A stretch of DNA of 64,000 bases from Octopus sinensis (taxonomy: Eukaryota): NCBI RefSeq assembly GCF_006345805.1, contig NC_042998.1, positions 147,126,001-147,190,000 on the forward strand, given 5' to 3'. Position 1 is the stretch's first letter. The number at the start of each line of letters is the position of its first letter. A model generated the notes under the pieces. That model was not told where the DNA came from. It saw only the letters and a list, made by a program, of their open reading frames with translations, and searched no databases. Made by a program: the position numbers and the translations under genes. Positions 32,300 through 32,754 of this stretch are shown one piece after another.

Positions 32300-32754
32300 T
32301 ATGTGGACACAGGACGTCATGAAACGTGTACAACAATAAAATACGAAGTACGAGTACATGGAATATGAACTGCTTTTTCGAAGAACGAAAGACACAAATG
32401 GAAAACAAGACAAACAACATAAAGAACGACCCTTCATCAGTTGTTGGCTGTTTTTCTCTTCTCGTATTTCGAGCATTTAACAACAATATACGCTTTCGAT
32501 AAAATAGTTGCTTCCGCAAAGCAAATTAAATTATATTTGGGATTTTGCGGAGGGTCAAAATTGGTAATACAAACAGGACAATGAAAACAAACAGGAAAGG
32601 CTGCTAAGCCTAAACGATGTTGTGGTGGTGAACGCGTAAAGCAATCTTGGACAAGGGACAGACAAAACACATCTTCTTTGTTCCAGCTACAACGGAGAGA
32701 AAGAAAGAAACACAAGTTAGGAGAAGAAAGAAAGATGGCCGATGGTAACACACA

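Follow-up and report, generated by a model that had tools for sequence, protein, structure and literature searches.

Does the minus strand at positions 32429-32492 of the 64,000-nucleotide stretch of Octopus sinensis DNA analysed here (the window) encode a genuine hammerhead ribozyme and, if so, how is its strand wired? A first-pass annotation had proposed a reverse-order core at this site, held under selection. We found that the blocks do indeed run S, G and then CUGAUGA along the minus strand, and that together they make up a complete hammerhead core (CUGAUGA, GAAA and a UH site). The blocks are positioned as follows.

32481-32492, minus strand: block S, with the stem III 5' strand at 32492-32489, U16.1 at 32488, H17, which is A, at 32487 (an AUA site), and a strand of stem I at 32486-32481.
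32463-32475, minus strand: block G, with the stem II 3' strand at 32475-32471 (C11.1 at 32471), GAAA at 32470-32467 and the stem III 3' strand at 32466-32463.
32434-32446, minus strand: the stem I partner at 32446-32441, followed by the CUGAUGA core at 32440-32434.

Stem I comprises six base pairs and stem III four base pairs plus A15.1-U16.1, all of them Watson-Crick, and both stems carry the compensatory changes relative to the site at 16458 that had been claimed for them. The reading of the site as a selected, non-circularly permuted core is likewise borne out by the covariation of stems I and III, which was counted on the fit to the descriptor given below, as these two stems are out of register in the MAFFT alignment. 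The predicted position of the cut, after A32487 (between 32487 and 32486), is retained from that first reading. A scan of the window for the core together with stems I and III returned three sites, at 16507, 16917 and 32440 (scores 27, 27 and 24), and the same scan of 100 composition-resampled windows returned one weak site and none scoring 23 or more. The site at 32429-32492 had no match in Rfam at the gathering score.

A second proposal, that this site arose independently of the one at 16458, was not upheld. The two belong to repeat families, A and B, whose flanks are homologous on both sides of the core, with intermediate families connecting them; the site is therefore a diverged relative with no independent origin. 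We conclude that both sites are homologous and belong to one non-coding repeat group, present in high copy number and associated with (TA)n, which has the following members in the window.

32186-32749, minus strand: a 5'-truncated copy of the non-coding family A repeat that holds the site, flanked 5' by an (AC)n tract and 3' by a TA-rich tract (full unit about 730-760 nt).
16448-16645, plus strand: a homologous, 5'-truncated family B copy, in which blocks S, G and CUGAUGA are present, and the helix X 5' strand, hairpin Y and the stem II 5' strand (all described below) are absent.
16858-17055, plus strand: a tandem duplicate of the truncated family B copy, at a spacing of 410 nt.
52214-52390, minus strand: an old, decayed family C copy, of a family whose consensus fits the same split-core fold.
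5074-5177, minus strand: a partial, internally deleted family F copy of the same ribozyme group.

Matches to long copies of family A reach 32749 at one side of the repeat and 32100-32265 at the other, and the family B copies at 16458 and 16868 begin 17 nt above the cut. Elsewhere in the window, segments at 37215-37727 (minus), 26100-26633 (minus) and 33336-33902 (plus) were read by eye as transposon remnants (a piece of a Tc1-like transposase, a C-terminal piece of a LINE and an unnamed 188-codon frame), and a long inverted repeat occupies 39712-42537, with arms of 283 nt (100%) and 173 nt (97%) lying 1.4 kb apart.

Stem II required revision. It had been drawn as GCTC/GGGT, with the A that follows CUGAUGA left over as an unpaired extra base, and both assignments are most likely wrong: the 5' strand of stem II more likely lies upstream of block S, at 32513-32509, and the 'extra' A makes the first pair of a further helix, X. 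The earlier stem II is explained by the copies that were used for comparison, at 16458 and 16868, which are 5'-truncated and lack the true stem II 5' strand as well as X and Y. The fold that we find supported spans 32427-32557, about 130 nt and not 64, and an RNA of the 64-nt stretch 32429-32492 alone is probably an incomplete motif. In the RNA the order is helix X 5' strand, hairpin Y, stem II 5' strand, bridging strand, block S, block G, bridging partner, stem I partner with CUGAUGA, and helix X 3' strand. The elements that lie outside the three blocks are listed here.

32551-32557, minus strand: helix X 5' strand, which pairs with 32433-32427.
32514-32550, minus strand: hairpin Y, the second arm of a four-way junction, with 7 bp at its base and a pair probability of 0.95 in the family consensus.
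32509-32513, minus strand: stem II 5' strand, positions 10.1-10.5; G10.1 is A (32513) in the window copy.
32501-32507, minus strand: bridging helix 5' strand, which pairs with 32448-32454, with one G to A mismatch at 32505 in the window copy.
32448-32454, minus strand: bridging helix 3' strand, ending one base ahead of stem I.
32427-32433, minus strand: helix X 3' strand, the first base of which is the A formerly taken as extra.

This split-core fold was assessed on 12 family consensuses built from 2-22 copies each (several from 2-8), using a descriptor that was composed after these consensuses had been seen; the families are related and represent about four deep lineages. When we searched the 12 consensuses for a partner of the strand 5' of GAAA, one pairing over 5-6 bp and lying 62-73 nt above CUGA was found in ten; the partner was shorter, at 3 bp, in F2, and none was found in A2. 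The descriptor fits 11 of the 12, the A2 consensus failing because it lacks G10.1. All 11 fitted consensuses, like the window site, contain CUGAnGA, GAAA and the UH site, and in every one of them the upstream strand makes a Watson-Crick stem II, positions 1-5 of which show 1, 2, 3, 4 and 3 pair types, all Watson-Crick. In nine of the 11 all three junction steps have no unpaired bases. Helix X is only 3 bp long in family D and is shifted by 2 nt in F and F2. The base that follows CUGAUGA forms an A-U pair in seven consensuses, U-A in two, C-G in one and G-C in one (the last in an offset fit), and since it can pair as A-U, U-A or C-G it does not count as extra. All 11 have a bridging helix (4-9 bp) that connects the strand following stem II with the one preceding stem I, and it provides the tertiary contact between stems I and II, placed like helix 'I' of PMC10085705. 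Stems I, II and III all show covariation, with stem II drawn from the upstream strand. Between stem III and the bridge, five of the 11 consensuses have a kink-turn pattern, which is clean in C, D, F and F2 and distorted in A.

With the upstream region shuffled, the descriptor score was reached in 0 of 150 trials in each of ten families and in 2 of 150 in F2. In a MAFFT alignment that was not fitted to structure, made from 29 copies picked for 5' completeness, helix X together with the upstream stem II was 94.1% paired, with 52 double changes and a covariation of 0.430 that was reached in 0 of 500 shuffles; slid controls on the same alignment all stayed at or below 0.092. RNAalifold picked the upstream stem II and no other, with three of its four pairs compensatory, and the minimum free energy fold of the window's own sequence contains X, Y and the upstream stem II. 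Nested, pseudoknot-free folding placed the probability of the upstream stem II near zero in nine of the 11 consensuses. No full split-core fit scoring 68 or more was found in 100 resampled windows, and as a chance control no full fit above 50 was found among at least 119 metagenome loci that match the short core pattern. The core bases, the block order and the covarying pairs of stems I, II and III, of X and Y and of the bridge are present across the families. A fourth helix pairing the linker with sequence 3' of CUGAUGA had also been considered and was dropped, the upstream partner being stronger and covarying. In the family B consensus (for example L033:1423-1582), G8-A9 and the next three bases are an exact repeat of the stem II 5' strand, and so give the stem II 3' strand an alternative 5-bp partner; this pairing would sequester the core and may represent an off state.

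Could the site instead be a plain type SGC hammerhead, with GCUC/GGGU as stem II, the A after CUGAUGA left unpaired, and the pairings further upstream serving as an alternative or off state? Its block order is that of type SGC (PMC10085705), and in the A/B/E subgroup this stem II is paired in 95.7% of cells, with one double change and 0 of 500 shuffles equalling it. It would also keep G10.1-C11.1 intact in the window copy, and the canonical PLE-type family of the same genome does have an unpaired base at this step. However, 57 of the 111 paired cells, about half, are G-U, and the pairs are Watson-Crick in only 9, 1, 2 and 6 of the 11 families at positions 1-4; the stem is lost altogether in C, F and F2 and reduced to 2 bp in D. 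It is also the weaker helix in all 11 consensuses (0 to -9.4 kcal/mol, against -6.7 to -12.2 kcal/mol for the upstream stem II), and its 3' strand is occupied by the stronger helix X (-13.7 against -5.6 kcal/mol in family A). The supposed extra base also covaries with its upstream partner, and we regard the plain type SGC assignment as quite unlikely. We conclude that the split-core motif is a real, selected hammerhead variant of predicted activity, the wiring of which was not found in the literature searched, namely that outside subscription journals.

The window copy is itself worn. It differs from the family A consensus at ten positions in about 230 nt, among them the change of G10.1 to A and the bridge mismatch noted above. 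The G10.1-C11.1 pair, present in all 11 fitted consensuses and in 23 of 30 family A loci, is thus absent here; the column of 32513 holds G in 23 of the best 30 family A loci, 29 of which are aligned at that position. The window copy fails the full fit, which was passed by 11 of the 22 family A copies with a readable core (rows L001-L029, cluster 1), and it is probably impaired, since G10.1 has changed to A. In 45 copies the stretch from G10.1 to stem III is matched without any difference.

We then considered the repeats themselves. A first look gave 2,799 candidates for family A and 2,899 for family B, 40 of each being scored. The core pattern matched 12,413 times against 45 for the reversed pattern; by eye, the first 100 matches listed comprised 48 from the reverse-order families, 51 canonical type I, PLE-like hammerheads of an unrelated family on (AAT)n and one further unrelated sequence. 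The (AAT)n-adjoining sequences form a second abundant family (L110-L138, cluster 3), with a canonical minimal type I PLE-style hammerhead and a truly unpaired A after CUGAUGA, which would account for about half of the 12,413 matches if the share in the first 100 listed is taken as a guide. Copies of families A and B have a fixed 3' part and variable 5' ends and lie within or next to microsatellites, some of them in tandem or with inverted 5' pieces. The units are about 730-835 nt long, as tandem spacings of 760, 816, 835 and 733 nt at some loci indicate, and most copies are single. An element conserved in A and B carries a 5' splice-site-like GTAAGT at the unit boundary (L021, L026, L030, L038, L156 and window positions about 16780-16795), which we take to recall the pLTR intron of Penelope. 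A 240-codon open reading frame in one family B unit was rejected as coding because it is of low complexity.

As to what mobilises these repeats, no reverse transcriptase gene was found joined to a family A or B copy, and six long-ORF PLE-like copies had no sequence in common with the A and B units. Among 20 diverged reverse transcriptase matches, six had a D-like core or similarity to family D downstream (five by blast, one by eye) and one had an F-type copy downstream, which may be an unrelated insertion. For family D the pattern matched 478 times against 0 for the control. This family matches the 3' ends of Naiad_Obim and Naiad_Ovul, both of which carry the split-core fold, and it represents the 3' UTR of an octopus Naiad retroelement. 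One family D locus carries the end of the Naiad ORF, and at 11 of the 30 loci found with the Naiad ORF-end peptide a D core lies downstream on the same strand within 1.5 kb. Matches to RVT_1 upstream of the D core were weak, with E values of 0.001 and 0.00085 in two of four peptides, falling under Pfam's cut-off. The group has high copy number, 5' truncation and tandem and inverted copies, and in this genome its fold lies downstream of Naiad reverse transcriptase ends. It is likely that families A and B are non-autonomous Penelope-like (Naiad-related) retroelements. Family C copies (window 52214-52390, minus strand; L065, L069, L070, L073 and L078) directly follow an ORF end resembling AEKASRWLWL, presumably of the kind typical of HERO-like LINEs, and through family C the same fold may serve a non-PLE retroelement.

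Published Naiads were compared with the fold by eye after the model had been set, covering a minority of the 54 consensuses of the PMC8557442 supplement. All six helices can be fitted to three Acropora Naiads, which are nearly identical, and to a single entry in each of supplement parts 12 and 19; five further Naiads, two from Nippostrongylus and three others, fit type CSG. Core matches in parts 8, 17 and 18, and one in part 19, showed neither layout by eye.

Indirect traces of cleavage were sought in RNA-seq reads and in the ends of genomic copies. Reads from three runs cover the stretch (same-label species, unstranded, about 6% of each run, mostly of a sister family), and at this depth there was no pile of read ends at the predicted cut. 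Among 60 copies, 12 have 5' ends from -10 to +20 relative to the cut (two of these being internal deletions), 11 from -50 to -11 and seven from +21 to +50, and the other 30 extend more than 50 nt beyond it; seven rows of the set are internal deletions rather than ends and two are the window's own duplicate. No clear sharp spike of 5' ends at the cut was seen among the 60. Over the ribozyme region as a whole, truncations occur at about three times the density seen further upstream, with no specificity for the cut.

These observations would suit a structured, non-catalytic 3' element, in which the fold serves the reverse transcriptase for recognition or priming and the core bases are vestigial: the read ends do not pile up, many copies run through the cut, a broken core is without precedent in the literature searched, and metazoan PLE hammerheads are weak in vitro (PMC4209133). 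However, CUGAnGA, GAAA, G10.1-C11.1, A15.1-U16.1 and a non-G H17 persist in all 11 consensuses although nearly every helix position has changed, as selection on catalysis predicts, and the same conservation of the core can be seen by eye in published Naiads of other phyla. We consider a non-catalytic role unlikely. An ordinary type I hammerhead is a far poorer candidate. It would combine CUGAUGA with a downstream GAAA (about 32383) and a UA/stem I strand (about 32340), or would draw on neighbouring tandem copies, and it can be drawn in the window copy alone, where its stem III is a weak one of A-U and G-U pairs. The UA site further downstream is specific to this copy, other family A copies shown having a T-run there, family B has no downstream GAAA, and the window copy is solitary; the canonical fold with the downstream GAAA was accordingly rejected as copy-specific, and we hold a type I hammerhead here to be extremely improbable.

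Taken together, we think it probable that the site belongs to an abundant non-coding repeat, likely a Naiad-related non-autonomous PLE, of which it is a worn copy with a reverse-order core, a catalytic strand that is likely split at A9/G10.1 and a four-way junction that joins it again; cutting after the AUA at 32487 is predicted for intact copies. All pairs of the fold would form together, with X and Y stacked on each other and stem II remaining stacked on the G12/A9 core in a Holliday-like 4H junction. The junction would fall at the A9/G10.1 step, where single-base insertions are tolerated (PMC4209133; also the CUGAUGAUG pattern of PMC10085705). Cleavage may trim tandem or read-through transcripts to unit-length RNA, which might then be circularised or reverse-transcribed, as has been proposed for PLE and retrozyme hammerheads. 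The window copy would be slow or dead, G10.1 being A.

More broadly, we lean towards the view that this is a seventh natural hammerhead wiring, opened in the core, closed by a four-way junction and active, and that with type CSG it is the long-missed ribozyme of Naiads and their non-autonomous partners in corals, jellyfish relatives, nematodes and cephalopods. If this is true, non-circular permutation is common in animal genomes and not a rarity of metatranscriptomes. Were cleavage to occur, it would overturn two published claims: first, that block C tolerates no interruption, so that there are only six permutations, of which the non-circular ones are missing from known genomes apart from a single candidate in bacteria (PMC10085705), and second, that hammerheads are lacking in Naiads (PMC8557442). 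It would also make ribozyme processing look general to PLE biology and explain the 'half-core' marks of Naiads. Thousands of animal ribozymes would then have been missed by standard descriptors and by Rfam, and the motif would supply a natural scaffold in which a helix port opens within the hammerhead core.

It remains to place the motif among known systems, each as described in the works cited. Non-LTR retrozymes and the minimal hammerheads of PLEs are likewise non-coding, hammerhead-bearing repeats that occur as monomers and tandems and are thought to derive from PLE ends (bioRxiv 10.64898/2026.07.22.740005; PMC4209133), and the octopus units too are non-coding and, at some loci, in tandem. 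However, those hammerheads are of type I, present in each retrozyme unit, often dimer-dependent and with one unpaired base, which in PLE motifs is described at the stem II 5' end (PMC4209133), whereas the octopus units carry a reverse-order core with a stable stem III and two helices at that step. No insertion at A9/G10.1 was found in the nine places of PMC3088659 that were shown.

Naiads are described as being without a canonical hammerhead, with 'core' or 'half-core' marks in some, and as favouring (TA)n (Craig et al., 2021; PMC8557442). The octopus repeats share with Naiad PLEs the (TA)n bias, 5' truncation and tandem and inverted insertions, traits that are common to other PLE clades. Families A and B differ from Naiads in being short and non-coding, with no ORF of the N-terminal GIY-YIG and C-terminal RT type, which in family D was found only as broken remnants, and the octopus Naiads, now remnants, look older than family B.

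Type SGC (HRIMA-1 and variants) has been validated in vitro and found only in metatranscriptomes (Eckert et al., 2023; PMC10085705), whereas the octopus motif lies in an animal genome in thousands of copies and its activity is predicted. Both have the reverse cyclic block order, S, G and then CUGAnGA, as at 32429-32492, a short linker from stem I to stem II and a fourth helix joining the outer ends of these stems. In type SGC, however, block C is taken as unbroken, with stem II 0-2 nt after CUGAnGA, whereas in octopus the stem II 5' strand is upstream of block S and CUGAUGA runs into helix X; an unbroken block C is still formally pairable in the A/B/E subgroup. The search patterns of Eckert et al. 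require CUGAUGAG or CUGAUGAUG, then stem II, with a linker of at most 15 nt (PMC10085705), and are unable to match CUGAUGAAG or a 16-nt linker.

Type CSG is represented by two sequences from soil metagenomes (PMC10085705) and places CUGAnGA 5' of blocks S and G; in the octopus motif CUGAUGA comes last and the stem II 5' strand alone lies 5'. Nevertheless, the connectivity of the two is the same once X and Y give way to a direct A9-G10.1 bond, each running through stem II strand, bridging strand, S, short linker and G. Type CSG is opened between stem III and stem I and has no four-way junction, whereas the octopus fold is opened inside the core. Both forms follow a single cyclic order, with the opening at a different point in each and the insert of X and Y in the octopus motif only.
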